Of a DNA stretch of 64,000 nucleotides, positions 33,223 to 51,537 are shown one piece after another. How positions within the stretch are numbered: the stretch's first letter is position 1; each line of letters starts with the position of its first letter. The stretch comes from Candidatus Falkowbacteria bacterium RIFOXYA2_FULL_47_19 (GTDB taxonomy: Bacteria > Patescibacteriota > Patescibacteriia > Patescibacteriales > UBA12075), in contig MFGB01000020.1 of the NCBI GenBank assembly GCA_001780275.1, positions 104,813 to 168,812 of the forward strand, read 5' to 3'. The position numbers and the translations under genes were made by a program. The notes beneath the pieces were generated by a model that was not told where the DNA came from, did not search any database, and saw only the letters and a list, made by a program, of their open reading frames with translations.

Positions 33223-34362
33223 TTATTGCTTTATCGGCATTATTATATATAAATAATGATCGCCTTTTTTATTTTCATCATACGGCCTTAATACGCAGGG
33301 GGTATTACAATCAATAACCTCGAATTTTATTTTATCCGTGTCGATATTATTAATTCCATCTAAGAGGTAGCGATAATTCACGACAATACCATTGTCTTTA
33401 CCGCTAACATCCGCTTCCAGATCAGTAGTATTCTCTCCCGCTTGACTTGAGGTTGCGGTGATGATTATTTTTTTCTTACCTAAAGGAAAATCAAGATTAA
33501 CATCGTTAATTCCGGTTTTAGAAAATAGAGCAGCCGCCTTTACTGCACGAATGAATTCAGCGCGTTCTATTATGGCGCTGGTTTCATTATTTAAAGGAAT
33601 GATCTGTTTATAATCAGGATATTGCCCTTCAATTAAACGGGAAACTATCTCCGTATTCCCGGCAGCGAACAGCACCTGGTTGTCAGTTATAAAAAAATTA
33701 ATTTCTCCACCTTCTGCGGATAATTCCTCGGCGCGAATAGAACCTAAAACCCTCATTAACTCGGATAGTGTTTTAGCGGGAATAATAATTTTCTTTTCTT
33801 CGTGGGTGTTAGATGTTAATTTAACTTCTTTTTCCGCCAACCGATAACTGTCAGTAGCCGCCATGATTAATTTTTGCGTAGTAAAGTTAAATAATACGCC
33901 GGATAATTCCGCTCTTGTGTCTGAATTAGAAACAGCGAATATTACCTGGGATAGCGATTTCTTAAAATCATCGATTTTTGCTTTATAAAAATTATCCCTC
34001 GGTACCTCCGGTATTAAAGGAAAATCATCAGCTTCCTGCCCCTTAATAACTGTTTTATAATTATCGCTTTTGATAAATAATTTATTTTCCTTTTTTTCTA
34101 AATCTATTTTTTTATTCGGTAACAAAGAAATAAAATCAGTAACTAATTTAGAGTCAATAGTAAACACCCCTTCTTTTTCAATTTTTCCCCTGATTTTAGT
34201 TGTGATTCCTATTTCCAAGTCAGTGGTGGTAAGTTTTATATTACCACCTTCGGTTTCTATTTTTATATTACTTAAAATCGGCAAATTTACGTTTTTACCG
34301 GCGATATGACTTACAATATGCAAGCCGTTCTTTAAATTTTCCTGTAAACTTGATAATTTCAT
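33223..34362 (-). CDS. dnaN: DNA polymerase III beta sliding clamp
   Basis: 379 aa, directly downstream of dnaA. N-terminus MKLSSLQENLKNGLHIVSHIAGKNVNLPILSNIKIE. Confidence 0.9.
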   Translation of the reverse strand: MKLSSLQENLKNGLHIVSHIAGKNVNLPILSNIKIETEGGNIKLTTTDLEIGITTKIRGKIEKEGVFTIDSKLVTDFISLLPNKKIDLEKKENKLFIKSDNYKTVIKGQEADDFPLIPEVPRDNFYKAKIDDFKKSLSQVIFAVSNSDTRAELSGVLFNFTTQKLIMAATDSYRLAEKEVKLTSNTHEEKKIIIPAKTLSELMRVLGSIRAEELSAEGGEINFFITDNQVLFAAGNTEIVSRLIEGQYPDYKQIIPLNNETSAIIERAEFIRAVKAAALFSKTGINDVNLDFPLGKKKIIITATSSQAGENTTDLEADVSGKDNGIVVNYRYLLDGINNIDTDKIKFEVIDCNTPCVLRPYDENKKGDHYLYIIMPIKQ

Positions 34363-34368
34363 ATATAT

Positions 34369-35721
34369 TTACGCGTTACTGTATATCAACTGTTTAATAG
34401 ATTCTATATCCTGCTTGGTTTTTTCATTATCACTTACTTCTTTTAAGATCTTATTGTAAGCATGTATTGCCGTTGTGTGGTCGCGTCCGCCTAATTCATT
34501 ACCGATGGTCGGATATGAATTATTAATTTCTTTACGCATTAAGAACATAGTGATCTGCCGCGGATAAACCAATTCTTTTTTCCGGCTTTTGCCGATTATT
34601 TCCTTATTTGAGATATCGAAAAAACGGGAAACAGCTTCAATTATATCCTTGCCGGTAACCGATTTCGATTGAATATTCATTATTAAGCTATTTAGAATAT
34701 TTTTCGTGGTATCAATAGTGGGGAAAGAATTATTAAATTCATGAAAAGCGATCAAGCGATTCAAAGCGCCTTCTAACTCCCTGATATTATTCTGAACGTT
34801 GTTAGCGATATAATAAAGAACTTCCGAATCAAGGGAATAATTTTTCTCTTTACATTTCGCCTCTAATATCGCCACTCTGGTTTCTATATCGGGTTGTGTG
34901 ATATCGGCGATCATGCCCCACTCAAACCTGGATAATAATCTTTTTTCCAGAGCAGGGATGGATTTCGGCGGGCGATCGGAAGTTAAGATTATTTGTTTAT
35001 TGGTTTGATGCAGCTCGTTAAAAGTATGAAAAAATTCCTCCTGGGTGCCGTCTTTACCGCCCATAAACTGAATATCATCTATTAAAAGCAGATCAACATT
35101 CCGATACCGGTCTTTAAAATCTTTAGCTTGGCCGCTTTTTACCGCCTGAACATAATCATTGGTAAATTTTTCACAAGTAGCGTATAAAATTTTATCTGTA
35201 TTTTTAACAACTTCGTGTCCGATCGCTTGGAGTAAGTGAGTTTTTCCTAATCCTACTCCGCCGTAGATAAATAAAGGATTATAAGCGTTTCCGGGGTTTG
35301 CGGCTACCGCCTGGCAAGCCGCATGGGCTAATTCATTGCCTTTGCCGACTATAAAATTATCAAAAGTATAGCGGGCATTCAAACCGAATCTATTGATTGA
35401 TACCGGTTCTTTATTATTACCGTCTTTTTTAATTTTGATCTTTTTAAGTAGGTCGCCGACCGGATTGGTTTTTCTGGTTTCTATTTTATAAAAAATTTTA
35501 TCTATCTTTTTATTACTGATATTTTGTAAAGCTTCCATTATTTGTTTGTGATATTTCTTTTCCAACCAGGCTTTCGTAAACATATTAGGGACACAGATAA
35601 CCACTTTATCTTCTTCAAAAGAGGAAATGAAGGTGTTTTTAAACCAGGTGGTGAAATTAGCTCTGGATAAACTTAACTCGATCTCCCCTAATACCGCCTG
35701 CCACAATTGTTCATTATTCAT
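34369..35721 (-). CDS. dnaA: Chromosomal replication initiator protein DnaA
   Basis: GGVGLGKTHLLQAIG, LLIDDIQF, C-terminal DNA-binding signature GGRDHTTAIHAYNKI. Confidence 0.95.
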   Translation of the reverse strand: MNNEQLWQAVLGEIELSLSRANFTTWFKNTFISSFEEDKVVICVPNMFTKAWLEKKYHKQIMEALQNISNKKIDKIFYKIETRKTNPVGDLLKKIKIKKDGNNKEPVSINRFGLNARYTFDNFIVGKGNELAHAACQAVAANPGNAYNPLFIYGGVGLGKTHLLQAIGHEVVKNTDKILYATCEKFTNDYVQAVKSGQAKDFKDRYRNVDLLLIDDIQFMGGKDGTQEEFFHTFNELHQTNKQIILTSDRPPKSIPALEKRLLSRFEWGMIADITQPDIETRVAILEAKCKEKNYSLDSEVLYYIANNVQNNIRELEGALNRLIAFHEFNNSFPTIDTTKNILNSLIMNIQSKSVTGKDIIEAVSRFFDISNKEIIGKSRKKELVYPRQITMFLMRKEINNSYPTIGNELGGRDHTTAIHAYNKILKEVSDNEKTKQDIESIKQLIYSNA

Positions 35722-36394
35722 AAATAAAAAATTATTTATATTAAATTTTCACTCTTTTATATACTATAACGTATAGTAAAAAATAAAGATTGTAAACCTG
35801 AAATGGCAAGTTTTGTTTTTAAATTTTGTTTTTAAACAGTAAAAGATCTTTTTTTGTTTAATAGGATTTTAATAATAAAATTATAGCAGTTAATTTAAAA
35901 ACATAAAACCCCTGTAAATTTCTTAATTTTGTTTATAAGGTGTTGATAATAAGTGGGAAAGTAATTTACAGTCTGTAGAGTGATTTTACACAGTAAAATT
36001 TTTTAGGATTTTGATTTTCAAAAAATATAAATTTTATAAAACATTTTTTAGGTGTATAAAAGTCCGCTATATTCATATCTTTAACTAATAATAATAATAA
36101 GACTGTTGGTAAAATCGACTTTTGGTTGTTTTTTATCGATTATAAAATAAAAACCGGGCGGAAAAACTGTGTAAAAAAAAATAAAAACAGTGAGTAAGTA
36201 TATGAGTTATACAGAGCGGTATTCTAAGAGTTAAAAAGAATGAACATATCATCACAATCGATTCCTCCAGTAAAACACATTGTTATAAACAGAGTAGTCA
36301 ACATGTTCTGTGGTTAACTAATTGGTTTATATTGACTTAAAACAAATAAGGTGTTATGTTAGTAATGTTATTTATTATAAATAAAAAATATTAT
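35722..36394. other. Probable oriC (AT-rich dnaA-rpmH intergenic region with degenerate DnaA boxes)
   Basis: Boxes with one mismatch to TTATCCACA: TGTTGATAA (35941-49, reverse) and TGTGGTTAA (36309-17, reverse). TTTTACACA occurs at 35984-92 and, inverted, at 36168-76. TTATACAGA at 36207-15 and TTATAAACA at 36283-91. Classic dnaA/rpmH position. Confidence 0.65.
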
Positions 36395-36532
36395 ATGCCT
36401 AAACGAACTTATCAACCTAATGTAAAGAGAGCTAAAAAGAAGCATGGTTTTATGAAGCGTATGCTCACGAAGGATGGTCGCGACGTAATAAAAAACCGAA
36501 GAGATAAAGGTAGAAAAAAATTAACCAAATAA
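36395..36532 (+). CDS. rpmH: 50S ribosomal protein L34
   Basis: Below the ORF-track size cutoff. My translation is [45 protein letters not shown]. Confidence 0.9.
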
Positions 36533-36534
36533 GA

Positions 36535-36885
36535 ATGTTAAAAAAAATAAACCGGCTGACCAAGAAAAAAGAATTTGAAAATGTTCACAAAAAAGGAAGG
36601 CCAAGTTTTGATAAGATAATGGGAGTAAAAACCGTTGGTAATGAATTAAAGTTAAATCGCTTCGGAATAATAGTCAGTATTAAAATTAGCAAGCAGGCAG
36701 TGATCAGAAATAAAGTAAAAAGACGTTTACGGGAAGCGGTGCGGTTGGAAATTGATGATTTAAAACCAGGAAATGATATTATAATAATCACCCTTCCCTT
36801 GATTAAGAGTTGTGAATTAAAAGATATTAGCGATTCATTGAAGAAGCATTTTTACCGGCTTTATCTCTATAAAACAAAAAGATGA
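36535..36885 (+). CDS. rnpA: Ribonuclease P protein component
   Basis: Follows rpm[22 protein letters not shown] pattern, 116 aa, basic. Confidence 0.85.
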
Positions 36886-37133
36886 AAATCTTTTTTTATT
36901 TACCAAGATCAACAGCTATTTGGATCATTAAGATTTATCAAAAAACCCTCTCCCTGGATCATGGTATCTTGAAATTTTTTTATCCTTATGGATTTTGCCG
37001 TTTTCATCCAACATGCTCACAGTACGCCATTGATGTTATAGAAAAATACGGTATCATTAAAGGTGGTTTTAAGGCGGTTTGGCGTGTTTTAAGATGCAAC
37101 CCCTGGAATAAGGGGGGGTATGATCCTGCTTAG
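36882..37133 (+). CDS. yidD: Membrane protein insertion efficiency factor YidD
   Basis: [19 protein letters not shown]...RVLRCNPW. Confidence 0.85.
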
Positions 37134-37151
37134 TAATTAATTATCAATTTC

Positions 37152-37880
37152 ATGTTCCAAATATTTTTTTATCAACCTATTTTTAATCTGGTTATTTTTT
37201 TGTACAATATTGTTCCCGGGCATGATCTTGGGGTGGTAATAATTTTATTAACCATAATTATAAAATTATTATTATTACCCTTATCAAAGAAAGCGTTAAA
37301 ATCACAAAAAGCCCTCCAGGATCTGCAGCCGCATATTGAAGAGATAAAAAAGAAATACAAAGACCGGAAGGATGAAATGGGAAGGGCGATGATGGAGTTA
37401 TATAAAAATAACAAGGTTAATCCCCTATCATCATGCTTACCGCTTTTAATTCAACTGCCCTTTTTATGGGCGGTTTTCCGGGTTTTTAGCAACGGCTTTG
37501 AAAATCTTGATTTAGTTTATTCATTTATCCAAAAGCCGGAAATAATCAACTATATTTCTTTTGGCTTTATAGATCTTCAGAAGCGCAATATTACTTTTGC
37601 CGTATTAGCGGGTTTGGCGCAATTTTGGCAATCAAAAATGATGATGACTAAACGGCCGGCAGTTAAGTCGTCCGGAGCTCGCGACGAGGATATGATGTCG
37701 ATAATGAATAAGCAAATGCTTTATTTTATGCCGTTCATGACTGTTTTTATTGGCATGTCCTTTCCGGGCGGGCTGGCGCTTTATTGGTTGGTTACCACAT
37801 TATTAACTGGTTTACAACAATTATTTATTTTTAGAAAAAGTAAAGATAAAAACATAATTGAAGGCGAGGTGGTTAAGTAG
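37152..37880 (+). CDS. yidC: Membrane protein insertase YidC (short form)
   Basis: Position after rnpA-yidD. LPLLIQLPFLWAVF and GLALYWLVTTLLTGLQQ. Confidence 0.85.
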   Translation: MFQIFFYQPIFNLVIFLYNIVPGHDLGVVIILLTIIIKLLLLPLSKKALKSQKALQDLQPHIEEIKKKYKDRKDEMGRAMMELYKNNKVNPLSSCLPLLIQLPFLWAVFRVFSNGFENLDLVYSFIQKPEIINYISFGFIDLQKRNITFAVLAGLAQFWQSKMMMTKRPAVKSSGARDEDMMSIMNKQMLYFMPFMTVFIGMSFPGGLALYWLVTTLLTGLQQLFIFRKSKDKNIIEGEVVK

Positions 37881-39706: not shown

Positions 39707-40090
39707 TCATTTTTTCTCCGCCGCTGTTTCACCTTTAGACATTCGGCAGGTGCCGTTTAAGATAGCATTTTTTTCAATAGAAATTTTATTAGCCTCAATA
39801 TCGCCGAAAATTTTAGCGGTTGAAGAAATTTCAAGATAGCCATCGACTTTAATATTACCATGAATCTCCCCTCCGATTTTAGCTTCCTTGGCCTCAATTG
39901 TGGCTGTAACTTTGGCTTTATTACCGATCAATAGAAAATTACTGGTTTTTATGCTACCCTCGACCACACCTTCGATAATAATATTTCCCTGTCCATGAAA
40001 ATTACCCTTAACTTTTATTGATGGACCAATAATAGTTTCCGCTTCTTTGTAATTAATTTCGTTGTTTTCTTTATTAAACATATAAGGCAT
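39707..40090 (-). CDS. Bactofilin (polymer-forming cytoskeletal protein)
   Basis: Repetitive beta-helix pattern: IKVKGNFHGQGNIIIEGVVEGSIKT...AKIGGEIHGNIKVDGYLEISSTAKIFGDIEA. Confidence 0.8.
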   Translation of the reverse strand: MPYMFNKENNEINYKEAETIIGPSIKVKGNFHGQGNIIIEGVVEGSIKTSNFLLIGNKAKVTATIEAKEAKIGGEIHGNIKVDGYLEISSTAKIFGDIEANKISIEKNAILNGTCRMSKGETAAEKK

Positions 40091-40311
40091 ACGAATTAAT
40101 AGTGATAAATACTTATAATTCGTAAATAAATTATTTTTATAAAATATTTAAATATAAAATTAGTTTAGATTTATATTTATACTTTAATATAACTCTTAAT
40201 AAAAAACAAGGAATAAATATTGCCAAATTAGATTATTTATTATATCATGAAAACATATTTGTGCGTTGATATTTTAGGGTTATGGATATTTAGGTTTTAG
40301 TGGTTACATTA

Positions 40312-40383
40312 GCTCTTGTAGTTCAATGGATAGAACGGGGGTTTCCTAAACCCTAAATAGAGGTTCGATTCCTCTCAAGAGCA
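40312..40383 (+). tRNA. tRNA-Arg (anticodon CCT)
   Basis: Acceptor GCTCTTG/CAAGAGC, D-arm GTTC-AATGGATA-GAAC, anticodon loop TTCCTAA, T-arm AGAGG-TTCGATT-CCTCT. Confidence 0.9.
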
Positions 40384-40414
40384 CAAATATTTGCTAATAT
40401 TAAATAAAATATTA

Positions 40415-40488
40415 GGGCCATTAGCTCAGTTGGCTAGAGCGCTTCCATGGCATGGAAGAGGTCAAGGGTTCAAGTCCCTTATGGTCCA
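40415..40488 (+). tRNA. tRNA-Ala (anticodon GGC)
   Basis: Acceptor GGGCCAT/ATGGTCC with the G3:U70 identity pair. Anticodon arm CTTCC-ATGGCAT-GGAAG. T-loop TTCAAGT. Confidence 0.9.
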
Positions 40489-40603
40489 CTAATAAAATTT
40501 AACCCTTTCTTTTTATAGAAAGCTATAGAAAATATTTTAATTAAATATTTATTGTGATTATTTTAAAGTAGGTAAAACCACTATTGGCTAGAGGTGAATA
40601 ATA

Positions 40604-40765
40604 ATGAATCATTTTAAAACCGCTCTCCTTGATCCAGAAATAATTCAAAAATATAAAAACAAACCATTCCATCAAGCTATTTTACATGCTCTTTCAGTAT
40701 ATGTTGAGCAAGGAAATAATATTTCAGATTTACCATGGTTTATTTTTAAAAAATCACAAAAATAA
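40604..40765 (+). CDS. Small ORF (53 aa) with its own RBS and terminator
   Basis: GAGGTG sits 7 nt upstream of the ATG. MNHFKTALLDPEIIQKYKNKPFHQAILHALSVYVEQGNNISDLPWFIFKKSQK*. Terminator 23 nt downstream. Below the ORF-track cutoff. Confidence 0.45.
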   Translation: MNHFKTALLDPEIIQKYKNKPFHQAILHALSVYVEQGNNISDLPWFIFKKSQK

Positions 40766-40787
40766 TTTAATTAAAATTAAAAACACA

Positions 40788-40809
40788 AAACCCTGTTCAG
40801 GGTTTTTTA
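40788..40809 (+). terminator. Rho-independent terminator after the small ORF
   Basis: Stem AACCCT/AGGGTT, loop GTTC, then TTTTTT. Confidence 0.7.
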
Positions 40810-40810
40810 T

Positions 40811-40824
40811 GTTCCACGTAGAAC
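40811..40824. repeat. 14-bp palindromic site GTTCCACGTAGAAC (copy 1 of 3)
   Basis: Half-sites GTTCYAC/GTAGAAC. Related copies at 41294-41307 and 41320-41333. Confidence 0.6.
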
Positions 40825-40896
40825 TGTACAAGGTTTATTTCTAAATCAATTTTTTAAAACCTTTTAAAATTAAAGGGTTTTTAATTGTTTAAAAAA

Positions 40897-41140
40897 TCCA
40901 CCGGCGAATCCGGTCGTCTACGGTTACATGTTGCGGACGAAGTCAGATATGCTCATTATAAGAATAAACGGATTTGAAATATATCGATAGTGGGTTTACT
41001 TGTATAATGGTTGTTGTTTGTTATTCCCGCCTGCCTGCCAACAGGCGGGGGGTTGGCGGGATAAGCTATGTGCTATATGTGGTTGTATGTACGGATCAAT
41101 CCCGGATCCCCGATATACGCCCCGGTCGGATTCGGTGATG
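40897..41140. ncRNA. Candidate structured RNA/DNA element (~240 nt, GC-rich island in AT-rich DNA), class unknown
   Basis: Long-range closing helix CGAATCCG (40905-12) / CGGATTCG (41127-34), extended by CAC/GTG. Internal hairpin CCCGCC..GCCTG-CCAA-CAGGC..GGCGGG (41026-41060). No ORF of 60 aa or more on either strand. Confidence 0.35.
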
Positions 41141-41293
41141 ACAAATTAACTTTTTAAAAAAAGGGCGAAGTCTGTTAATTTATAACCCCACTGACTAAGT
41201 CGGTGTGTAGTTTAATTAAATTACTAATCAATAAATAATGGCTATTTATTTTTAAAGATTGTCCTAAAAACTATTTATTAATTATATACAAAA

Positions 41294-41307
41294 GTTCCAC
41301 AAAGAAC
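41294..41307. repeat. 14-bp site GTTCCACAAAGAAC (copy 2 of 3)
   Basis: Direct reading. Confidence 0.5.
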
Positions 41308-41319
41308 AATTATCAAAAA

Positions 41320-41333
41320 GTTCTGCGTAGAAC
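41320..41333. repeat. 14-bp palindromic site GTTCTGCGTAGAAC (copy 3 of 3)
   Basis: Direct reading. 26 bp start-to-start from copy 2. Confidence 0.6.
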
Positions 41334-41732
41334 AATTTAAATATAACATTTTTATCTAATATTCAAATAACGTTAAAATTATTAAAATTTAAATTAAATT
41401 AAGGCTGACTTAAAAATTGTACAATAAATATTAATACAATTTAATTATTTGTAGGCAAGGCATTATTAATAGAATAAATAGATATTATTTAAAATTTATT
41501 TTTAAAATATCATAAAAAATCAAAAAATAATGACAGTGGAAAAGTCTACAAAAATGTGGACTATTAATTTATATTTATACTAATATTAAATAAAAAATAA
41601 GCAGGGGATAAGATGAGGATAAGCTATTATAATATAAAAATTAAACTTATTTAAATAAAATTGATTATTTTAATATTAGCAAAAAGATAAAAATACTAAA
41701 AATATAAATAACCCAATAATAGAAAAAATATT

Positions 41733-41761
41733 TTGACAGTCTTATTTTTTTATAATATAAT
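41733..41761 (+). promoter_or_regulatory. Consensus sigma70-type promoter TTGACA-N17-TATAAT
   Basis: TTGACA at 41733-38 and TATAAT at 41756-61. Predicts a ~125-nt 5' UTR for the 41893 gene. Confidence 0.6.
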
Positions 41762-41792
41762 ATTAATGTAAGCATTATCAAATAATTTTCCG

Positions 41793-41885
41793 CACCTTTT
41801 TAGCAGTTCGTATCCCACTCCGAAAGCATCCCCTAATACTGTTTCACGGCGGTGTCCCGCCAAACAGTATTAAAGGTGTGGGATA
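41793..41885 (+). promoter_or_regulatory. Nested-hairpin 5' leader (riboswitch-like candidate) ending 7 nt before the start codon
   Basis: Outer stem TATCCCAC (41811-18) / GTGGGATA (41878-85). Inner 10-bp stem AATACTGTTT (41835-44) / AAACAGTATT (41862-71) capped by GGCGG-TGTC-CCGCC. Alternative pairing CACCTTT (41793-99) / AAAGGTG (41872-78). Confidence 0.45.
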
Positions 41886-41892
41886 AAAAAAT

Positions 41893-42354
41893 ATGCGGCA
41901 CGTGGCTCAACAAATCGGACCATCTGTCACATTTTTAAACAGGAACTGGAAATTTTTACGTTTTTGGTTCAAGATCTATACCTTGGCGGTATGGTGTGGT
42001 TTAATTATTGATTTTTTCACTAATTCGCTTACGTTTACCAGTGGACTACTGGTATTTTATTTAGCCTTTCTTTCGTTATATAATGTCAGTAAAGAGGTTG
42101 ATAGATGGCTTACTAATCTTCATAATTGGCGACTCGGTGAAATTTGGGTGGCGGTATGGCTGGTTACTAATTTAGTGATCGGCTATATCTATATGATGCA
42201 CCCCGATGAATTTAAGGGTGGGGCAGAGGCATTAAATCAGATAAGTTCAGTAACGATCGGTGTTCTGGCTAATTTTATCGGATCAGAGGTTTCTAAAAGG
42301 ATTTATAAGATCAAACGGCTTAAAAAAGCGAATCGTATCATTAGAATAATTTAA
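41893..42354 (+). CDS. Hypothetical 4-TM membrane protein
   Basis: 153-aa ORF with a terminator at 42375-97. No family recognised. Confidence 0.5.
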   Translation: MRHVAQQIGPSVTFLNRNWKFLRFWFKIYTLAVWCGLIIDFFTNSLTFTSGLLVFYLAFLSLYNVSKEVDRWLTNLHNWRLGEIWVAVWLVTNLVIGYIYMMHPDEFKGGAEALNQISSVTIGVLANFIGSEVSKRIYKIKRLKKANRIIRII

Positions 42355-43527: not shown

Positions 43528-44070
43528 TTAATCGTTTTCACTTCTTAATTTATCCAGACGCTCTTTTATTTTTTTATTTTCTTCTTCCAGTATTTTTTCT
43601 TTGATGTCTCGCGCCATTCCTAAGCGTAAAGTATAAAAATCGTCGAGGGTTTTATCAAGCTCCATGGAACGTTCTTTGTATTTCTGTTTTGACGATTTTA
43701 ATTCTTCGGTATGGCGGCGCAACTCCAGGTTTTTATTTTCTATGTCGCTATTTAATTTTTTAAGATCCGCTGATTTTCGCATCAAGTCGTATATTAATCG
43801 GTTGTTGATCTTTAAAACCGTTACAACGAAAATAGCGCCAAAGAAAAAAATAACGCTAACCAATAATTCGTTCGTCGTATGGACGGGGGAGTAGATCAGA
43901 CGGGCAAAGAACGCCAGGTAACCGAAAATAAACAAGCAGATCAGAGCCAGTAGGACCCAGTAATGGTTGGCGGCGGTATTGTTTTTTACCGAGTTATTCA
44001 ACTTATAACAAAGCCAGGTTGAATAAAAAAGAATAATCGCGCCGGCGGACACAAGAATCATGTTAAACAT
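43528..44070 (-). CDS. Hypothetical membrane protein with a C-terminal coiled coil
   Basis: 180 aa. About 4 N-terminal TM helices, then a charged heptad-like region. Confidence 0.45.
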   Translation of the reverse strand: MFNMILVSAGAIILFYSTWLCYKLNNSVKNNTAANHYWVLLALICLFIFGYLAFFARLIYSPVHTTNELLVSVIFFFGAIFVVTVLKINNRLIYDLMRKSADLKKLNSDIENKNLELRRHTEELKSSKQKYKERSMELDKTLDDFYTLRLGMARDIKEKILEEENKKIKERLDKLRSEND

Positions 44071-44104
44071 AGAACATTTATTAAATTATAATTTTTTATA
44101 AAAA

Positions 44105-44698
44105 TTATTTTATAATAAAAGAGTCTGAATAAATTATTTCCGGCTCGAAAAGAAGTTGGGCGTTATCGTGCAAATTAAAACTAAACTGGAACGCGAGCCG
44201 GTATTCGCCGCTTTCAATACGCCGGACGACAGACGCTTCGCTAAAACCACCTTCTTTGAATGGGCAAATTTTCTGATCCCAGGCTGTGCTTATTTTTAAA
44301 CCAGTCCCGAGCGCCATAGGCGGAACCTGCTCATAAAGAGCGATGTAGCAACTATCGCCAAGCCGTTCATCGGTTAATTGAAAACCTTCGCGTCCGCCAT
44401 AACCGAATTTTTTCCACTCGCTTTTTTCTAAATATTCTATTTCCCAAACCCTGTCGCCGCCCGGATAATAAAAAATATTTTCTTCCAGGCCGTTTTTAAT
44501 GATGATATTAATTGTTTCGCCGGAGCTGTAAATTTTTTTATCAGTGGAGATGCTTATTTCCGCGGCCGGCGGCGCGGGCAGTAGCGGCGGCGTCGGCGGA
44601 GTGATCTTATTTTGCCGAAAAAACAAAAAAATAAAAATAAAAATCAATAGCGCGATGATAATAATAACAGACAATTTAAATTTTTTATTTTTTGCCAT
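44105..44698 (-). CDS. Hypothetical membrane-anchored/secreted protein with a Pro-rich linker
   Basis: 197 aa. N-terminal TM helix, then PPTPPLLPAPPAAE. Confidence 0.45.
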   Translation of the reverse strand: MAKNKKFKLSVIIIIALLIFIFIFLFFRQNKITPPTPPLLPAPPAAEISISTDKKIYSSGETINIIIKNGLEENIFYYPGGDRVWEIEYLEKSEWKKFGYGGREGFQLTDERLGDSCYIALYEQVPPMALGTGLKISTAWDQKICPFKEGGFSEASVVRRIESGEYRLAFQFSFNLHDNAQLLFEPEIIYSDSFIIK

Positions 44699-44834
44699 AT
44701 TTATTAAATTAAGAATTATTATGTAAAATCAATTTTACGTCTTCTTAAGTCAGTCGGCGGGATTGAGCCGCTTATTGCGGCGTTATATGGTGTAAAAAAT
44801 ACGTATATTTCGTACAACAGCTTCGGGATATCTG

Positions 44835-44899
44835 AAATTCAGTTGGCGTAATCTGCTAAAATTGTGCGAACGCACTAGCAGATTATGGAAACTGAATTT
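44835..44899. repeat. Long imperfect hairpin in the spacer downstream of the 44928 gene
   Basis: AAATTCAGTT/AACTGAATTT (44835-44 / 44890-99), ATCTGCTA/TAGCAGAT (44851-58 / 44876-83), GTGCG-AA-CGCAC (44864-75). Confidence 0.7.
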
Positions 44900-44927
44900 G
44901 GGAAAGCGATCGTCAAAAATAAAATAT

Positions 44928-45476
44928 TTAATCTTTGATCTCGTATTCCCAGCCAGCTCGCCATTTTTTTGCTTTACGCCAATCTTCCTCGATAGCCGTC
45001 TCCCAGGTTTTGTCTCTAAGAACAACATCTAAAGCTAGTTGCGGTGCTTGATGGGCGACGATGGCAACGCGTTTTCCGTTATAATTAATTTTTAAATATT
45101 CACAAAACTCTCTAATACGATTTTCAACATCTTTATAGCTTTCACCGTTTGGAAAAGGAGTATCAACATAGTCATTCATTTTGTTTTTAAAAACTTTCGC
45201 TTCTTTTTGCGTATAGTCGCCATAATTTACTTCTCTGAGTCTTTTGTCGCGAATTATTTCATATTTGTCGCCAAAGGCAAGTTCGGCGGAATTAATGGCG
45301 CGTTGTAAATCGGAACAAAAGACGATGTCATATGCCTGCTTCGCAACTAGCTGTCCAAGGTTTTTGGCCTGCTGTTTTCCTATCTCGGATAATTCACCCG
45401 GTGCCCAACCAGTTGCTAGGTCATGTTCGTTGTCGGTAGTGGTGCCGTGGACAAAGTATGTGATTTTAACACTCAT
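44928..45476 (-). CDS. Histidine phosphatase (phosphoglycerate-mutase-like) family protein
   Basis: MSVKITYFVHGTTTDN (RHG-like motif) and later AIVAHQAPQ. I chose the ATG at 45476. The track ORF starts at a TTG at 45491. Confidence 0.6.
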   Translation of the reverse strand: MSVKITYFVHGTTTDNEHDLATGWAPGELSEIGKQQAKNLGQLVAKQAYDIVFCSDLQRAINSAELAFGDKYEIIRDKRLREVNYGDYTQKEAKVFKNKMNDYVDTPFPNGESYKDVENRIREFCEYLKINYNGKRVAIVAHQAPQLALDVVLRDKTWETAIEEDWRKAKKWRAGWEYEIKD

Positions 45477-45660
45477 AAGATTAGAGATCAAATATTTTAT
45501 TAAGTTCGCTGACCAGATACGCCGTGTTGTATGTAGTAAATTTTTTATCTTTTTGCAGTAGTATTAAATCTTGTCTACTAGTAGAGAAATTTGATTTTTT
45601 GTTTTAAAAAAATAAAAGAGGGGATGTGAAGGGGATGAATTCTTTTTTCAAAACTCCTTA

Positions 45661-46167
45661 TTATTTATTTTTTATCCATTTCTTCGTTTCCTGATAGCTT
45701 ATTTTACACCGAACTTTAAAGTCATCATCTGAAATATGCAAAGCAATATCGTTATTGTAAGTGTTTAAAAAAATATCGTGATCATTTATTATCTTATCTA
45801 TAATTTTTAAAGATTCCAAATAATCTTTTGACTTATAAAGACGTGTCAAAAATTCCTTGCTTAAGTCAATGCTAATTATAAAATAGCGGTACTCATTTAA
45901 AGTCAACTGCTTTTTAAATTCTTCCCATTCTCTGTCTACGCTTAGGTCACAAATAAAAGAAACTCCATTTTCCATAATTTCTTTCAATCTTTCATTACGC
46001 CTTTTAACGTGTTCGTTAGAATCAAATATTCCTAAATCTTCTGTAACTTCGCTACGAATAGCGTCATTGTTAAAAACTGGTAGATTCAGTTTTGTGCTTA
46101 AATAATTTGTAATGGGTGTTTTGGAGCTACCAACAGCTCCTGCAAAAGTAATACAAATTTTATTCAT
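45661..46167 (-). CDS. P-loop kinase/NTPase-like protein (AAA_33/zeta-toxin-like fold)
   Basis: Walker A FAGAVGSSKT near the N-terminus, 168 aa. Confidence 0.45.
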   Translation of the reverse strand: MNKICITFAGAVGSSKTPITNYLSTKLNLPVFNNDAIRSEVTEDLGIFDSNEHVKRRNERLKEIMENGVSFICDLSVDREWEEFKKQLTLNEYRYFIISIDLSKEFLTRLYKSKDYLESLKIIDKIINDHDIFLNTYNNDIALHISDDDFKVRCKISYQETKKWIKNK

Positions 46168-46291
46168 AAATTTAAATTTAATTTGGAGCGAAGCGACTTC
46201 AACTTTCCCCTTTAAATTATTTAAAAAACAAAACTTTCGGTCGTGACTAAATCGTCAAACCTTGAATTCAAGAAAGATAAAAATTTATTTC

Positions 46292-46391
46292 GTCTAACGG
46301 CTTCGGGATAAGCGAAGTCCTGAGAAGTGAAGTGAATCGGGATTTGGGAAAATGCCGAGCCGAGGCATTTTCCGGTTATCACTTGTTAAGC
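46292..46391. repeat. Structured spacer segment bounded by integron-core-like heptamers GTCTAAC ... GTTAAGC
   Basis: GTCTAAC (46292-98) fits RYYYAAC and GTTAAGC (46385-91) fits GTTRRRY. The enclosed imperfect hairpin pairs AAGTGA..GGAAAATGCC with GGCATTTTCC..TCACTT (46330-84) and has a bulge. A side hairpin (46299-320) makes it non-canonical for attC. Confidence 0.3.
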
Positions 46392-46470
46392 GAGGGCTCG
46401 GCTGAATTCTTTATTATTGAGAAGAGTCTGACGTAAGCGCAGCGTCCGTATGAGTTTTTGAAAATAACAT

Positions 46471-46944
46471 TTATAATTTTTGGCTATTTAAATACTCAAA
46501 GAATTCTTTACCCCAAGCCAGAATAATTCCATTCTCTTTAAGAACTTTTAGTGATTTATTTTTGAACTTCAAATAATCATTAAGAAATTTTGCGGCAATG
46601 TCTGGCCAAATATCTCCAATAACACAATCATACTTTTTATCTTCGTCGATATTAAAAAAATCACCAATTATTAATTCGCCAAAAATTTGGCCGGACATTG
46701 CTTTCATTTTTTCTATAACCTCAGGATATTTTTCTACAGTCGTGACAGATTTTACTTTTGGATTTTTTAGCAGGTACTCGGGAAGTAAGCCCAGGCCATA
46801 TCCTGCAACCAAAACATCGCCACATGCACCATCGGCCAATTCTTGCTGAAGCTCTTTTTCTTGCGGAGTGTCCCACATCCAAAGATAGTCATCCAGATAC
46901 ATAAATCTGTGTCCTTTGTGCTGCAAAATTTCTATTTGGGCCAT
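46471..46944 (-). CDS. Class I SAM-dependent methyltransferase / spermidine-synthase-like fold protein
   Basis: VLVAGYGLGLL (GxGxG-like), VEKYPEVI, VIGDIW. Confidence 0.45.
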   Translation of the reverse strand: MAQIEILQHKGHRFMYLDDYLWMWDTPQEKELQQELADGACGDVLVAGYGLGLLPEYLLKNPKVKSVTTVEKYPEVIEKMKAMSGQIFGELIIGDFFNIDEDKKYDCVIGDIWPDIAAKFLNDYLKFKNKSLKVLKENGIILAWGKEFFEYLNSQKL

Positions 46945-47125
46945 AAAATAAATGTTATCTTAAAAATTTCGTATCTTTTAGTTGTGTCTGAAGTTTCTGT
47001 TCCTCTTCTTTTAAAAATTAATAATGAAAAAAGGAATAGAAATTTGGGTCGGAATCCGCCTTGGGCGGATTGAGCCGCTAATCGCGATGTTAGATGATGT
47101 TGGTGTGCGGTCGTGAATATTGCAA

Positions 47126-47506
47126 TTATTTGTTATCTAGATAATCAATTACTTTATCAAGTATCGTATTGCACTTATCAATTTCTTCCCGAGTCGTGAA
47201 TTTACCTTCGCTAAAGCCAAATTTAAATTTTAAAAACTCTTTTACGTCTTTTTTTAATGACTCATCACGGATCATGCCGTCCATTAAAGCACTTTCAAGA
47301 TCGTACTTTAAACCAGAGATGTAATTACCTTGGCACTTGAACATATTGTAACGTGGGTCGTTAGAAGGGATAATATTTCTTACATCTTCTTCTGGTAAAT
47401 CATCAAGGTGTTCATCTCGGAGCCAATGGAAACGCTCCTGATACCATTTTTTATCAAAAAGAGTTTCTTTTTCTTTATTTTTTAAATTTGGCTGTTCGTG
47501 TTTCAT
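47126..47506 (-). CDS. Hypothetical protein (126 aa)
   Basis: Clean ORF in the cassette-like array. No family recognised. Confidence 0.4.
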   Translation of the reverse strand: MKHEQPNLKNKEKETLFDKKWYQERFHWLRDEHLDDLPEEDVRNIIPSNDPRYNMFKCQGNYISGLKYDLESALMDGMIRDESLKKDVKEFLKFKFGFSEGKFTTREEIDKCNTILDKVIDYLDNK

Positions 47507-47675
47507 ACAAAGGAATTTGTTTTTATAGTATTAGCACACCAATTTCACATAACATCGGGCTTTAGGGAAGTTTTTTGCGTAGCAAAAATTTGGGAGAGTG
47601 AAGTGCAACAAGCAAACTATTTAAGCCCCGCTAAATAAGGTAAGGACGAAGTCCGAAAGCGCAACGTCACCTGAG

Positions 47676-48203
47676 TTATTTTTCAGCCCCGTAGAATTCA
47701 TCGAAATACTTCTTTATACCTTCAACAAAAGGTGGTGTGTATATGTCAGGATTTTCAATAATATCTTTTTTTAATTCATCTGCATTAATCCATTTAATTT
47801 TTGAAATTTCTCTTGCATCGGGATTGATACCATCATCAGATTTACCAACAAAAACACAATGCCAAGCTTTATCAAATGTGTCAAAAAACGGATATGTAAA
47901 TAATCTTTTTACATTTGTTGAAATTCCAATTTCCTCTTGCATTTCTTTTTGAATACAATCTTCATAAGATTCATTAGCCACAGTTCCACTAACCGAATAT
48001 GTAAAAAGATTTGGGTACCATTTTTTTGTTGGCGCCCTATGTTGCAAGAGAATTTCGTTTTTTGAATTAAAAAGTATTAAATGAGATGAACGATGAATAT
48101 ATTTCCCTGTATAAAAATCATCTCTTGGCCTTAAGCCAATTTGATTATCGTTTTTATCAACTTCGATATTTTGCTCTACCATTTTTAATTTAAATCCTGA
48201 CAT
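47676..48203 (-). CDS. NUDIX hydrolase (isopentenyl-diphosphate-isomerase-like subfamily)
   Basis: Nudix box GTVANESYEDCIQKEMQEEIGI. N-terminal VDKNDNQIG...HRSSHLILFN resembles IDI-type Nudix proteins. Confidence 0.7.
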   Translation of the reverse strand: MSGFKLKMVEQNIEVDKNDNQIGLRPRDDFYTGKYIHRSSHLILFNSKNEILLQHRAPTKKWYPNLFTYSVSGTVANESYEDCIQKEMQEEIGISTNVKRLFTYPFFDTFDKAWHCVFVGKSDDGINPDAREISKIKWINADELKKDIIENPDIYTPPFVEGIKKYFDEFYGAEK

Positions 48204-48229
48204 ATATATAAATTTATTTCACTGAACGA

Positions 48230-48316
48230 CCTGTCCGCCTCTGGCGGAAGGGTTTGCCCGCGGCTGGAGAGCATTATACGAGCACCGACCCGCCATAGGC
48301 GGGGAGGGCGGAGCGA
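48230..48316. repeat. GC-rich repeat R1a (~87 nt), about 90% identical to 48980-49064
   Basis: CCTGTCCGCCTCTGGCGGAAGGG(T/C)TTGCCCGCGGC...GAGCACCGACCCG(C/T)CAT(A/G)GGCGGGGAGGGCGGAGCGA. Confidence 0.85.
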
Positions 48317-48376
48317 TGGCGGAGGAGTAATAAAAAATTTCGCTCCTTATTTATAATTTTGGCAATTTGTTAATAT

Positions 48377-48781
48377 TTAAGAAGAAACATTAATTTTTCC
48401 ACCCTCTATATTATCTATTGTGTTTTCTAATTTTGATTCAGCTTCATCCAGACCACCGAGAATATCGCTAATTTTTTCATTCTCGAAATTAAAGACTGAT
48501 TTTTTATCAGAAATTCCACGAACTGCATTACCCAATTCTTTTCCCCACCCCTGTTCTTCTTTTGGCACAAAATCATCAATGTTGTCTTCGATTTCTTTCC
48601 AGGTTTTATCTTTAATACTTTTACCATGCCTTTTTATTAACATGTTAAAACCCGATTTCATAACTTTAACGTGATCTAAAGTTTTTTTTGCCTCCTTTAA
48701 TGTTTTTTGCTCTTCGGCTATTTTTCGAGAAAAATTTAGCTCTTTTTCGTTTTTTGGTTGAAAAGTTGTTTCTTTTTCCAT
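48377..48781 (-). CDS. Hypothetical protein (134 aa, charged)
   Basis: Clean ORF. Bracketed by an 18/19 inverted repeat (48353-71 / 48801-19). Confidence 0.4.
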   Translation of the reverse strand: MEKETTFQPKNEKELNFSRKIAEEQKTLKEAKKTLDHVKVMKSGFNMLIKRHGKSIKDKTWKEIEDNIDDFVPKEEQGWGKELGNAVRGISDKKSVFNFENEKISDILGGLDEAESKLENTIDNIEGGKINVSS

Positions 48782-48854
48782 AGATTTGTTATTTGTGACA
48801 AATAAATTGCCAAAATTATTAATTAATATAGTGATTTTTTATTATTGCGTATAA

Positions 48855-49120
48855 CGGGCCGCGGGATTTGCGATGCGCGTGGCTCCGCCTCGCAGGCGGG
48901 GACAGGCGTTTCGCATATCCCGAGTAGGGCGTGTTCGCTCCGGCTGCCCGCAGGGCAGGCGAGCGGCAGCGGCGAACAGCCTGTCCGCCTCTGGCGGAAG
49001 GGCTTGCCCGCGGCCGGAGCATTATGCGAGCACCGACCCGTCATGGGCGGGGAGGGCGGAGCGATTTTTTCCGAACCGTGGTAATATCTGAGGTTTTGTC
49101 ACCTCCTTATTGAATTTATT
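48855..49120 (+). ncRNA. Candidate multi-hairpin structured RNA (~265 nt, very GC-rich), contains repeat R1b (48980-49064); class unknown, strand tentative
   Basis: Long-range GGCCGCGGG (48857-65) / CCCGCGGCC (49007-15). Hairpins: GGGATTTGCG/CGCATATCCC (48863-921) with inner CCGCC-TCGCA-GGCGG; GTTCGC..CTGCCC-GCA-GGGCAG..GCGAAC (48933-77); CCGCC-TCT-GGCGG (48985-97); CCCGTC-ATG-GGCGGG (49037-51). A terminator-like GAGGT-TTTGTC-ACCTC plus a T-rich tail (49090-49120) occurs on the plus strand. Confidence 0.35.
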
Positions 49121-49154
49121 TGGTAATAAAATTTGGGTGAATCCGATTAATTAA

Positions 49155-49607
49155 TTATTTTATTATGTTCTCAAGGTTTCCGTTGATAATAATCGGTTTT
49201 AAATCTTCTAACTCGTCAACATAATGCATTCTTTCACTTCGTTCAGGAATTGGATTATAAAGGTATATTGTTTTCTCATGTCCGTAAGCAAAGCCCATTT
49301 CCATTAAAGTGCTACCACCAATGTAATTATCTATACCTTTCTTTTCCATATTCAGAACAAGTATAGCATCAGAATGTTTTATATAATTCCAATATCTTTT
49401 TATCATATCAACAGGCTCAGCGTTCCTAAGTCCAATATCCCCACCTTCTTCCTTGGCTTTGAGATAATCTTCAAATTTTAGTTTGCCGTCAATCATCTTT
49501 TGAGTAAAAAGTGGGATATTAACCGTCCATCCTTTATCCTCCAATTCTTTTTTAAGCTCGATTATCTTCGGGGAGAAATCGACGCTCGAACATATTGTTA
49601 TAGTCAT
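49155..49607 (-). CDS. Nucleoside 2-deoxyribosyltransferase-like (NDT/DUF4406-like) protein
   Basis: MTITICSSVDF...ILVLNMEKKGIDNYIGGSTLMEMGFAYGHEKTIYLYNPIPE resembles the NDT-like Rossmann family. I chose the start at 49607. The longer track ORF (49682) adds an implausible leader that overlaps the upstream gene. Confidence 0.45.
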   Translation of the reverse strand: MTITICSSVDFSPKIIELKKELEDKGWTVNIPLFTQKMIDGKLKFEDYLKAKEEGGDIGLRNAEPVDMIKRYWNYIKHSDAILVLNMEKKGIDNYIGGSTLMEMGFAYGHEKTIYLYNPIPERSERMHYVDELEDLKPIIINGNLENIIK

Positions 49608-49666
49608 ACTAAATAAAAAAATAATAATCTGGCGTAGCCAGTTATGCCGTGATAGGCGAAGTAATA

Positions 49667-49993
49667 TTAACATTTTCCACAAGTGCCCAGACCAGAATTG
49701 TTAGCTTTTTGGCACACCCATCTGAGTATTCCAGAATATCCTTTTTCGGGCTCTACTTCATCTAAAGAGGCAATTGATTTATCTATTGGCAACCCGCTAT
49801 TTTCGCAGATTCCTTTAAATGGATAACGTTTTTTTGCAGAAATCCGTCCTTTGTTTCTGTGTTTGGTCGCAATTACACCAATTCTCTTTGCAACTGCGAC
49901 AGGATTATGCGCAGAAACAATCGCCTCTTTAATTTGCCCCTGAATGCATTCCGTGAGCCCCTTATCGTGTTGGTCAAGTTTTAATGCTGTCAT
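49667..49993 (-). CDS. Hypothetical protein (108 aa, C-terminal Cys cluster)
   Basis: Clean ORF. Its 5' UTR and its stop-codon region form a 17/18-nt inverted repeat (49663-80 / 49994-50010). Confidence 0.4.
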   Translation of the reverse strand: MTALKLDQHDKGLTECIQGQIKEAIVSAHNPVAVAKRIGVIATKHRNKGRISAKKRYPFKGICENSGLPIDKSIASLDEVEPEKGYSGILRWVCQKANNSGLGTCGKC

Positions 49994-50260
49994 GTGGAAA
50001 TGTTAATATTATTTAGCCTATCAAGTTATATGTGAACTTATTGCGGATTGTTTAAAAATTAGTTAAAATATGTTTATTAACTTCTTAGCATAAGGCTTTA
50101 TGCCGGGAAATATTTATATCCGAGCAAGGATTTCGTGTAGAAATTTTTCAGGGAAATGCGGATTCGTAATTTTAGCGGGAAAACCAGTAGGGCCTATTTG
50201 TATTATAACAGGAATTTATAAGTGATTACAATGCTAAAACCCTCGATGTTCAACTGAATT

Positions 50261-50968
50261 ATGCTTAATCTTAAAGAAGAAGAAAACCTGTTCACACTAG
50301 GATATAGATTCGTTGGCGGACTAGACGAAGCCGGACGCGGGCCTTTGGCCGGACCGGTCGTGGCCGCCTGCGTTATTTGTGAACGCGATCATAAAATCAA
50401 CATGGAGACCCTTAAAGACGTAAAAGACTCGAAGAAGCTCACGGAAAAGAAAAGGGAAAAGCTCTTTGGACTTATCCAGGAGAATGTTTTTGAGGTCGGG
50501 GTCGGGGTTTGCGACCAGGATACCATAGACAGAATAAATATATTCCAGGCTTCTCTCTTGGCCATGAAAAAAGCGATCGGCGCGCTTAAAAATAAGCCGG
50601 AATTCATAATGCTTGACGGAAAATTCCCGATTCCAAATATCAGTCTAAAACAAAGAGCGATCATCGGCGGCGATAACCTCGTCTTTTCCATAGCCGCGGC
50701 TTCAATTATCGCAAAAGTAACCCGCGATCGGATCATGCGCACCCACCATGAAGAATATCCGGAATACGGCTTTGATAAGCATAAGGGCTATGGGACAAAA
50801 TTCCACATAGAACAACTGGCAAAACACGGACCCTGCCGTCTCCACCGGAAAAGCTTTGAGCCAATAAGGAAATTCTATAATAATACGGCCAATATTTTAA
50901 AATCCCCCTTAATCCTTGTTAATAATAAAAAAATTAACTATAATAATAATGTAATCAAGGAGAATTAA
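50261..50968 (+). CDS. rnhB: Ribonuclease HII
   Basis: GLDEAGRGPLAGPVVAACV, DSKKLTEKKRE, HKGYGT. Confidence 0.9.
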   Translation: MLNLKEEENLFTLGYRFVGGLDEAGRGPLAGPVVAACVICERDHKINMETLKDVKDSKKLTEKKREKLFGLIQENVFEVGVGVCDQDTIDRINIFQASLLAMKKAIGALKNKPEFIMLDGKFPIPNISLKQRAIIGGDNLVFSIAAASIIAKVTRDRIMRTHHEEYPEYGFDKHKGYGTKFHIEQLAKHGPCRLHRKSFEPIRKFYNNTANILKSPLILVNNKKINYNNNVIKEN

Positions 50969-50982
50969 CAATCCAAGTTTTT

Positions 50983-51537
50983 ATGCATAATATCACTGGC
51001 GGGGATAAATTATTGGACGTTAAGGTAATTTTAAATAAAGCGGAAATAGGCGAGGGTATGAAAGTGGCCGATTTGGGCTGCGGCTCGACCGGACACTTTG
51101 TTTTTCCGGCTTCCGCTATGGTCGGCGAGAAAGGCCTTGTATACGCGGTCGATATATTAAAAACCGTATTGGAAACCATTAACCGGCGGATAAAGTATGA
51201 GAACGCAAAGAATATAATTACCGTCTGGAGCAATATTGAAATATTCAAAGCCACTAAAATAGAATCCGGAAGCCTTAACGTCGCTCTGTTGGTTAATACT
51301 CTTTATCAGTCGCATAAGCGGGCCGAAATAATCCGCGAATCGGTCCGGATGATAAAAAAGGGCGGTAAACTTATAATCGTAGAATGGAAAAACACGGCTT
51401 TGCCCTTTGGTCCCCCGACAGAGGAACGCGTTAATAAGGATGCTTTAATAAAAAGCGGTCCCCGGCTCGGTCTTGAGTTTGAGGAGGAATTTTTTGCGGG
51501 ACATTATCATTACGGCCTTATTTTTACAAAATCATAA
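50983..51537 (+). CDS. Class I SAM-dependent methyltransferase
   Basis: VADLGCGSTGHF motif I, 184 aa. Confidence 0.65.
   Translation: MHNITGGDKLLDVKVILNKAEIGEGMKVADLGCGSTGHFVFPASAMVGEKGLVYAVDILKTVLETINRRIKYENAKNIITVWSNIEIFKATKIESGSLNVALLVNTLYQSHKRAEIIRESVRMIKKGGKLIIVEWKNTALPFGPPTEERVNKDALIKSGPRLGLEFEEEFFAGHYHYGLIFTKS

Follow-up and report, generated by a model that had tools for sequence, protein, structure and literature searches.

Integron gene cassettes are compact units of a promoterless open reading frame (ORF) and an attC site (the 59-base element), which stand in one orientation and carry diverse small accessory genes. A classical attC folds into one imperfect hairpin, ~57-141 nt long, and the first bases of a cassette, TTRRRY, are complementary over 6-7 nt to its own inverse core, RYYYAAC. 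Only two sets of repeats, R and L, belong to the standard description of attC (PMC8352920), and clusters of attC sites without an integron integrase are termed CALIN (PMC4889954; PMC9024848). In this study, a stretch of 64,000 nucleotides (the window) from the candidate-phyla-radiation bacterium Candidatus Falkowbacteria bacterium RIFOXYA2_FULL_47_19 (contig MFGB01000020.1, positions 104,813 to 168,812) was analysed, in which small consecutive ORFs on the minus strand are individually bracketed by inverted repeats. These ORFs probably form an integron-type cassette array in which the repeats are the halves of an extra, cassette-specific outer stem of attC, parted when a cassette is inserted.

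Similar to integron arrays, the block consists of compact promoterless ORF and attC units in one orientation. Its G+C content lies below that of its surroundings, and between the ORFs lie G+C-richer structured elements that have RYYYAAC and GTTRRRY boxes, a putative inner L helix next to unpaired spacers, and a crossover side inferred, as in attC, to be GTT. The products of this block include Nudix, histidine phosphatase, kinase-like, methyltransferase-like and deoxyribosyltransferase-like proteins together with unknowns (ORFans), and the array is bordered by genes for RNase HII and thioredoxin reductase. Because of these box-bearing elements, the mixed small proteins and the lack of a tyrosine recombinase among the scanned window proteins, the block looks like an integron-type cassette array without a nearby integrase. 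As in CALIN, attC-bounded cassettes occur with no intI nearby and several sites are degenerate, as expected of decaying arrays. An adjacent intI with attI and Pc was not found, just a promoter-like site (TTGTAA-18-TATAAT with a TG extension, 50231-50202 on the minus strand) that is oriented into the array in the 250-nt gap between the RNase HII gene and the first cassette; since the integrase was looked for and not found, we file the block as a CALIN-like array with an attC variant and not as a complete integron.

Unlike known integron cassettes, those of this array continue past a conserved GAAA/CATC bubble into a third, outer helix of 9-20+ bp that is specific to the cassette, their attC sites span 53 to ~440 nt with modular internal hairpins, and their host is a candidate-phyla-radiation bacterium. 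The outer helix is also absent from the description of CALIN, which are set by the attC model of IntegronFinder, whereas the sites here were recognised by their core boxes. The original prediction, made from the letters of the window alone, had found no standard annotation class for such repeats, which is fair given that standard attC has the R and L sets only (PMC8352920).

All four gene-flanking pairs named in that prediction were located where it had placed them within 44500-51000, and a repeat search showed that every one extends further than described and that three more ORFs have pairs of their own (Table 1). The search listed 166 pairs, and AT-rich DNA yields many short ones. This abundance, together with arms made of A and T only (e.g., the phosphatase 12-mer), is what chance matching in AT-rich DNA would produce, and inverted arms might alternatively be the terminal repeats of an insertion sequence (IS) or a miniature inverted-repeat transposable element (MITE); an origin of either kind is, in our view, extremely improbable. 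For all 58 non-overlapping window genes, we aligned each 5′ flank with the reverse complement of every gene's 3′ end. Mismatched gene pairs scored 18.3 on average (sd 3.6, 99th percentile 29), while ten consecutive minus-strand genes at 43528-49993 gave own scores of 31, 24, 33, 27, 29, 28, 30, 43, 22 and 47. Thus the 5′ flank is complementary to the gene's own 3′ end in eight of the ten ORFs (scores 27-47), and just one of the remaining 48 window genes reaches at least 27 (29). Among the block genes, own pairs scored higher than mismatched ones (Mann-Whitney p = 6e-7), and none of the derangements attained the observed sum. Complementarity of a gene's own ends is a trait of the 43528-49993 block and not of the genome generally. 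Moreover, neither target-site duplications beside the arms nor a transposase gene among the scanned proteins was seen, and the cassettes of the array do not share arm sequences, in agreement with the earlier statement that the pairs are unique to their genes and fit no single IS or MITE family. The permutation test and the covariation test described below refute both a chance origin and one from a MITE or IS.

Folded alone, the inter-ORF elements gave no single clean attC hairpin, and their structure became clear only after comparison with related arrays. When species-representative genomes were scanned with a motif taken from two attC ends, two true relatives emerged, one from another Falkowbacteria genome (L016) and one from Patescibacteria (L042). 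Matches in ~17 Pyrinomonadaceae and other acidobacterial genomes came from a conserved coding gene and were rejected as false positives, recognised by their shared coding flanks. Ten further fragments (L058-L067) came from metagenomes scanned with the other attC end. Read on the cassette strand, every array has the layout G|TTRRRY-GAAA-X ... ORF ... X′-CATC (or ctac, cttc)-RYYYAAC-attC body-G|, in which X is complementary to X′ and its sequence varies between cassettes. This layout is common to 22 cassettes with unrelated proteins, from the window and nine contigs of other candidate-phyla-radiation bacteria. A regular-expression listing placed R′′ (RYYYAAC) and R′ (GTTRRRY) boxes at every junction of the related loci and at most junctions of the window; of 21 aligned sites, 20-21 keep AAC and GTT unchanged. 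The arms stand at a fixed 4 nt from the core boxes, while their distance to the start and stop codons ranges from about -10 to 144 nt. An arm at the start pairs with the arm that precedes the cassette's own attC, so that of the explanations first offered, a footprint of cassette insertion is the one supported. The pair around the 126-aa ORF, with a 9/9 match once thought to be possibly due to chance, is a textbook case of this layout.

The X/X′ helix depends on neither the presence nor the orientation of an ORF, as it also encloses ORF-less cassettes and, in L016, a cassette whose ORF is antisense and has its own promoter and terminator. Multi-gene cassettes obey the same rule: a 3-kb cassette of L060 (1285-3365, oriented), with one cytosine DNA methyltransferase-like gene and another large gene that possibly encodes a restriction enzyme, is bounded by a 16/17 outer helix.

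Partners of X and X′ were assigned by a search anchored at the core boxes; pairing R′ with the nearest complementary 7-mer was discarded because it chose intragenic sites. Non-cognate pairs at curated sites served as the null, an earlier null having been inflated by true partners nearby and by shared X sequences. Anchored X and X′ match over 9/9 to 16/16 positions in the 22 cassettes (scores 6-16), compared with 2.0 +/- 2.0 for non-cognate combinations (Mann-Whitney p = 2e-17), among which only two X sequences, each present at more than one locus, give high scores. As a control, the ends of seven class 1 integron cassettes, taken from the two arrays L068 and L069, are complementary over ~7-8 nt, or 12 nt in aac(6′)-Ib, and score 14-25 versus up to 47 for the Falkowbacteria cassettes on the same scale.

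Pairing also extends to the core boxes. R′′ is complementary, with at most one mismatch, to the TTRRRY that opens the same cassette in 17 of 22 cases. In the attC of L066 (R′′ 3114, R′ 3296; compared by eye), the site's own R boxes differ by three mismatches, and its R′ matches the R′′ of the next cassette perfectly. Because R′′ matches the TTRRRY of its own cassette and not, as in L066, the R′ of its physical attC, the sequences place the crossover at G|TT, as in integrons, with TTRRRY going with the downstream cassette.

Both ends of the cassettes were then aligned and scored against the three-part structure, in which 87% of the cells are paired. The covariation score is 0.731, compared with 0.205 in shuffles (0 of 500 reach 0.731) and 0.15-0.24 for slid partners, and changes on both sides occur at 15 of 16 outer-helix positions. 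G-U cells number ~2 among ~231 in the well-paired part, without wobble enrichment. Compensation reaches even the normally invariant GTT and AAC: the core boxes of the 108-aa cassette show a double T/A change (GATAGGC/GCCTATC versus GTTAGGC/GCCTAAC). The same variant box pair, with the same spacers and attC start, recurs in L016 (plus strand, ~977-983 and 1103-1109), where it encloses a G+C-rich ORF-less insert and not a gene.

A different explanation places the pairing in RNA, where the 5′ untranslated region (UTR) would pair with the 3′ end of the same cistron and control translation, stability or RNase III processing within a polycistronic transcript. Several cassettes have arms that adjoin or overlap their start and stop codons, in the RNA fold predicted for the 108-aa cassette the X/X′ helix encloses the entire ORF in both the minimum free energy and the centroid structure (z = -6.0), and the promoter-like site described above lies upstream of the array. 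The 16S and 23S rRNA processing stems cut by RNase III, and mRNA panhandles, likewise have a unique pair of complementary arms around a gene-sized unit. Those stems act in RNA and tolerate G-U pairs, however, whereas the arms here are tied to DNA core sites and covary in strict Watson-Crick fashion. Their fixed 4-nt spacing from these sites contrasts with the variable distance to start and stop codons, the helix is found in ORF-less cassettes, the arms of the antisense-ORF cassette would lie outside its transcript, and wobble pairs are not enriched. We therefore consider the mRNA panhandle of the original prediction unlikely as the primary cause, although the predicted folds suggest that an effect of the pairing on transcripts may be real but secondary.

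It is very improbable that the segments are invertons, in which each ORF would flip between its own arms. Inverted repeats do flank a gene-sized segment, which is the sole support for this explanation, also among those first offered. Against it, ten contigs in public assemblies carry the array, nine of which are collinear at 99.9-100% identity and the tenth over the shared 2.6 kb, and no inverted version was seen among these ten at the assembly level. The sequence differs in every pair, no invertase gene occurs among the window proteins scanned, and the positions of the arms are set by the attC core boxes. The array-carrying contigs are nearly identical, so that they hold no covariation signal within the population. 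A contig of low coverage, L010 (ENA ERZ4902888, NODE_7064; compared with 47955-50761), matches the array at 99.9% identity between 50600 and 47955, has only ~84% identity in the adjacent RNase HII gene and continues from the middle of the Nudix ORF into unrelated radical-SAM-like sequence; it represents a chimeric assembly or else a recombinant strain that shares cassettes.

On the preferred interpretation of a split outer stem, the attC hairpin would run past the R box, through the GAAA/CATC bubble (two pairs plus a 2x2 mismatch), into a third helix of 9-20 bp, or up to 44 nt in one case, whose sequence is specific to the cassette. A crossover at G|TT within this long hairpin would part the two arms, and insertion would leave TTRRRY-GAAA-X at the 5′ end of the cassette and X′-CATC-RYYYAAC-attC at its 3′ end. 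The ORFs seem bracketed by repeats of their own because the cassettes are compact: X takes up most of the 5′ UTR, and in many of them X′ lies over the stop codon. An IntI-type tyrosine recombinase presumably cuts the folded single strand at G|TT, whereby the 3′ outer arm of the hairpin would be placed at the far end of the cassette. The outer helix would then re-form only in the excised circle, or with the ORF looped out of single-stranded DNA. A comparable case is the CTX phage, whose folded single-stranded DNA is integrated by XerCD via the attP hairpin. There, too, the site exists only as a hairpin of one strand and the cut position in the stem allots the arms in the integrated element; unlike the cassettes, the phage uses another enzyme and site and is a single element, not a cassette array.

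Predicted folds are consistent with such a hairpin. The bottom strand of the circle junction is predicted to fold as one hairpin composed of the outer helix, a small bubble, the R helix, a 3-nt bulge and the L helix, with energies of -17.4, -22.4 and -35.1 kcal/mol compared with -6.9, -19.0 and -14.5 kcal/mol for the arrayed attC sites. For short sites, the bottom strand is predicted to form an inner helix of 11-12 bp, with the R and L helices set apart by a 3-nt bulge, and whole-cassette folds retain the long-range helix in DNA and RNA alike. Two roles are conceivable. Free cassettes may fold better than arrayed attC sites, which would favour capture and limit excision, or looping out of the ORF may draw the two flanking attC sites together for excision. 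We suggest only tentatively that an outer helix formed after excision alone serves as a sensor of the circular state, biasing the system to capture of free cassettes and stable arrays, or else as a cassette-specific guide that joins the flanking attC sites for precise excision, and that the arms may record the assembly of a hairpin onto the end of a gene at the birth of the cassette.

The last of these suggestions comes from the 108-aa cassette, in which the 5′ arm mirrors conserved coding sequence, and from other cassettes in which X′ overlaps the stop codon. Homologues of the 108-aa protein number 45 (50-71% identity) and are spread over diverse genomes, one being Rudaea sp. These conserved proteins of ~107 aa have no Pfam match; Cys, Gly and Trp occur at invariant positions, and at the C-terminus stands a CGxC, which is invariant in 14 aligned sequences of the family. 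The 3′ arm covers exactly the CGxC codons and the stop. Therefore, the 5′ arm of this cassette matches pre-existing coding sequence. The flanking repeat was not found at three homologous loci in other genomes (scores 14, 14 and 18), which rules out its inheritance together with the gene family. For the 134-aa protein, the homologue search returned the query alone.

Several observations weigh against the proposed array and its split stem. Five of the 22 cassettes have good X pairing but no good pairing of the R boxes, and the 22 are the clear cases among 37 candidates, the others being truncated or having long-type attC sites that were taken separately. The R′′-to-R′ distance of 53 to 441 nt, with several internal hairpins, departs from the size and shape of the classical single hairpin. 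No tyrosine recombinase was found among the 19 window proteins scanned or, by eye, in the larger ORFs of the related fragments. Within the window, the 134-aa ORF is followed by no recognisable R′′, the 157-aa and phosphatase ORFs lack an R′ in front of them, and in the Nudix cassette the 3′ arm lies inside the ORF, off the layout rule. The same pairing of arms is also predicted to form in mRNA. The degenerate junctions of the window fit a decaying array.

The long attC-like elements of L016, L042, L060 and L066 are modular, with a recurrent CCCAAAT and conserved ends R′′-ACCGCGATAAGCGG ... CTTCGCTTATCCCGAAGCC-R′. A second, longer type of attC is preceded by ctca and a conserved CGCTGCGCT extension, and its X′ precedes R′′ by 60-120 nt, the matches reaching up to 24-27 nt; the arms of the 157-aa cassette follow this long-type layout, and L058 has the same arrangement. 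A G+C-rich direct repeat of ~105 bp (48221-48327 and 48965-49075, copies 91-94% identical) appears, from comparison with L016, to be an ORF-less cassette with outer-helix arms of its own, TCGCTCCG / GGAGCGA. One pair of outer arms, TAAATTTTTTATC / GATAAAAAATTTA, recurs across genomes: in the window (46276-46287 and 45537-45549), L066 (2407-3114), L061 (78-1228) and L016 (3134; oriented coordinates). The ORFs of the cassettes that share these arms are unrelated (168, 131 and 295 aa), and ~30 nt upstream of X′ are also common to the window and L066 copies, so that, judging by these sequences, it looks as if cassette ends were kept while the interior was swapped.

Table 1. Positions of the cassette array, its attC-like elements, the inverted repeat pairs and the parts of each cassette in the window
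Feature	Position	Strand	Remarks
Whole cassette array	44740-50030	minus	
attC-like elements	~44817-44912, 46292-46450, 47040-47095, 47547-47640, 48221-48327, 48849-48960, 49077-49151	minus	
ORF-less cassette	~48961-49083	minus	
108-aa ORF pair	3′ arm 49643-49675, 5′ arm 49998-50030	minus	repeat search, 33 nt, 85%; 49650-49681 vs 49993-50023, 29/32 with one indel
134-aa ORF pair	3′ arm 48328-48371, 5′ arm 48801-48844	minus	35/44, 80%; outer helix 11 bp, inner helix 19 bp, internal loop of 14 nt between
Phosphatase pair	3′ arm 44918-44941, 5′ arm 45478-45501	minus	21/24, 88%
126-aa ORF pair	47080-47108 with 47534-47562	minus	repeat search; 47085-47108 vs 47534-47557, 20/24, 9/9 core included
157-aa ORF pair	46449-46474 with 46948-46973	minus	repeat search; wider arm extents 46449-46484 and 46940-46973
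168-aa ORF pair	45537-45549 with 46276-46287	minus	12/13
Nudix ORF pair	47740-47761 with 48185-48206	minus	repeat search; 47740-47754 vs 48192-48206, 15/15
108-aa cassette, variant R′ GATAGGC (usual GTTAGGC)	50016-50022	minus	spacer taaa 50012-50015
108-aa cassette, arm X TAATATTAACATTTCCAC	49994-50011	minus	adjoins ATG at 49993; 14/14 anchored, 18/19 with one bulged A
108-aa cassette, arm X′	49662-49680	minus	overlaps last codons CGKC and stop
108-aa cassette, variant R′′ GCCTATC	49651-49657	minus	spacer cttc 49658-49661; perfectly complementary to GATAGGC
134-aa cassette, R′ GTTATAC and arm X	48849-48855 (R′), 48801-48844 (X)	minus	spacer gcaa
134-aa cassette, arm X′	48328-48371	minus	followed by ctcc, then GC-rich element
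126-aa cassette, R′ GTTATGT and arm X TTGGTGTGC	47547-47553 (R′), 47534-47542 (X)	minus	spacer gaaa
126-aa cassette, arm X′ GCACACCAA and R′′ ATCTAAC	47100-47108 (X′), 47089-47095 (R′′)	minus	9/9; spacer catc
168-aa cassette, R′ GTTAGAC and arm X TAAATTTTTATC	46292-46298 (R′), 46276-46287 (X)	minus	spacer gaaa
168-aa cassette, arm X′ GATAAAAAATTTA and R′′ ATACAAC	45537-45549 (X′), 45526-45532 (R′′)	minus	spacer ctac; followed by truncated attC
157-aa cassette, 5′ arm	46940-46973	minus	overlaps ATG; degenerate R′ (..TAC-gaaa-)
157-aa cassette, 3′ arm	46449-46484	minus	overlaps stop; ctca 46451-46454, then CGCTGCGCT extension
Phosphatase cassette, 5′ arm	45478-45501	minus	adjoins ATG; truncated attC upstream
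Phosphatase cassette, 3′ arm	44918-44941	minus	includes stop codon; directly precedes attC 44817-44912
Nudix cassette, 5′ arm	48192-48206	minus	15/15; 10 nt past GTTCAGT-gaaa
Nudix cassette, 3′ arm	47740-47754	minus	within ORF, 64 nt ahead of stop

Rfam scans at gathering and permissive thresholds returned only tRNAs and noise in the window and nothing in the array; Rfam does not include a curated covariance model of attC. Elsewhere in the window, ~1.8 kb at 40090-41893 have a G+C content of 0.28 and no ORF of at least 100 aa, and contain genes for tRNA-Arg and tRNA-Ala at 40312-40489. The genes dnaN, dnaA, rnpA and yidC lie together at 33223-37880, a cluster that probably places the replication origin near 35.7-36.5 kb. 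In that case, the array would lie ~8-14 kb to the right of the origin, its ORFs would be transcribed head-on to replication, and the lagging-strand template would be the plus strand, which is the bottom strand of attC. The minimum of the cumulative GC skew is near 22-23 kb, at odds with this position.

A literature search of partial coverage, in which absence is no proof of novelty, gave no report of an outer helix of attC or of integron-like arrays from candidate-phyla-radiation bacteria. If the proposed structure is true, a third paired element of attC, split by integration and strongly covarying, would add a new determinant to the structure of the site. On this view, cassettes would fold far better once excised than within the array, which would be a means of controlling directionality. 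The outer helix would also be a practical marker, because it matches the two ends of each cassette without knowledge of the enzyme. To our knowledge, the origin of new cassettes is an unsolved question, and the 5′ arm of the 108-aa cassette, which mirrors conserved coding sequence, bears on how attC sites come to be joined to genes. Integron-like cassette arrays would thereby be extended to candidate-phyla-radiation bacteria.

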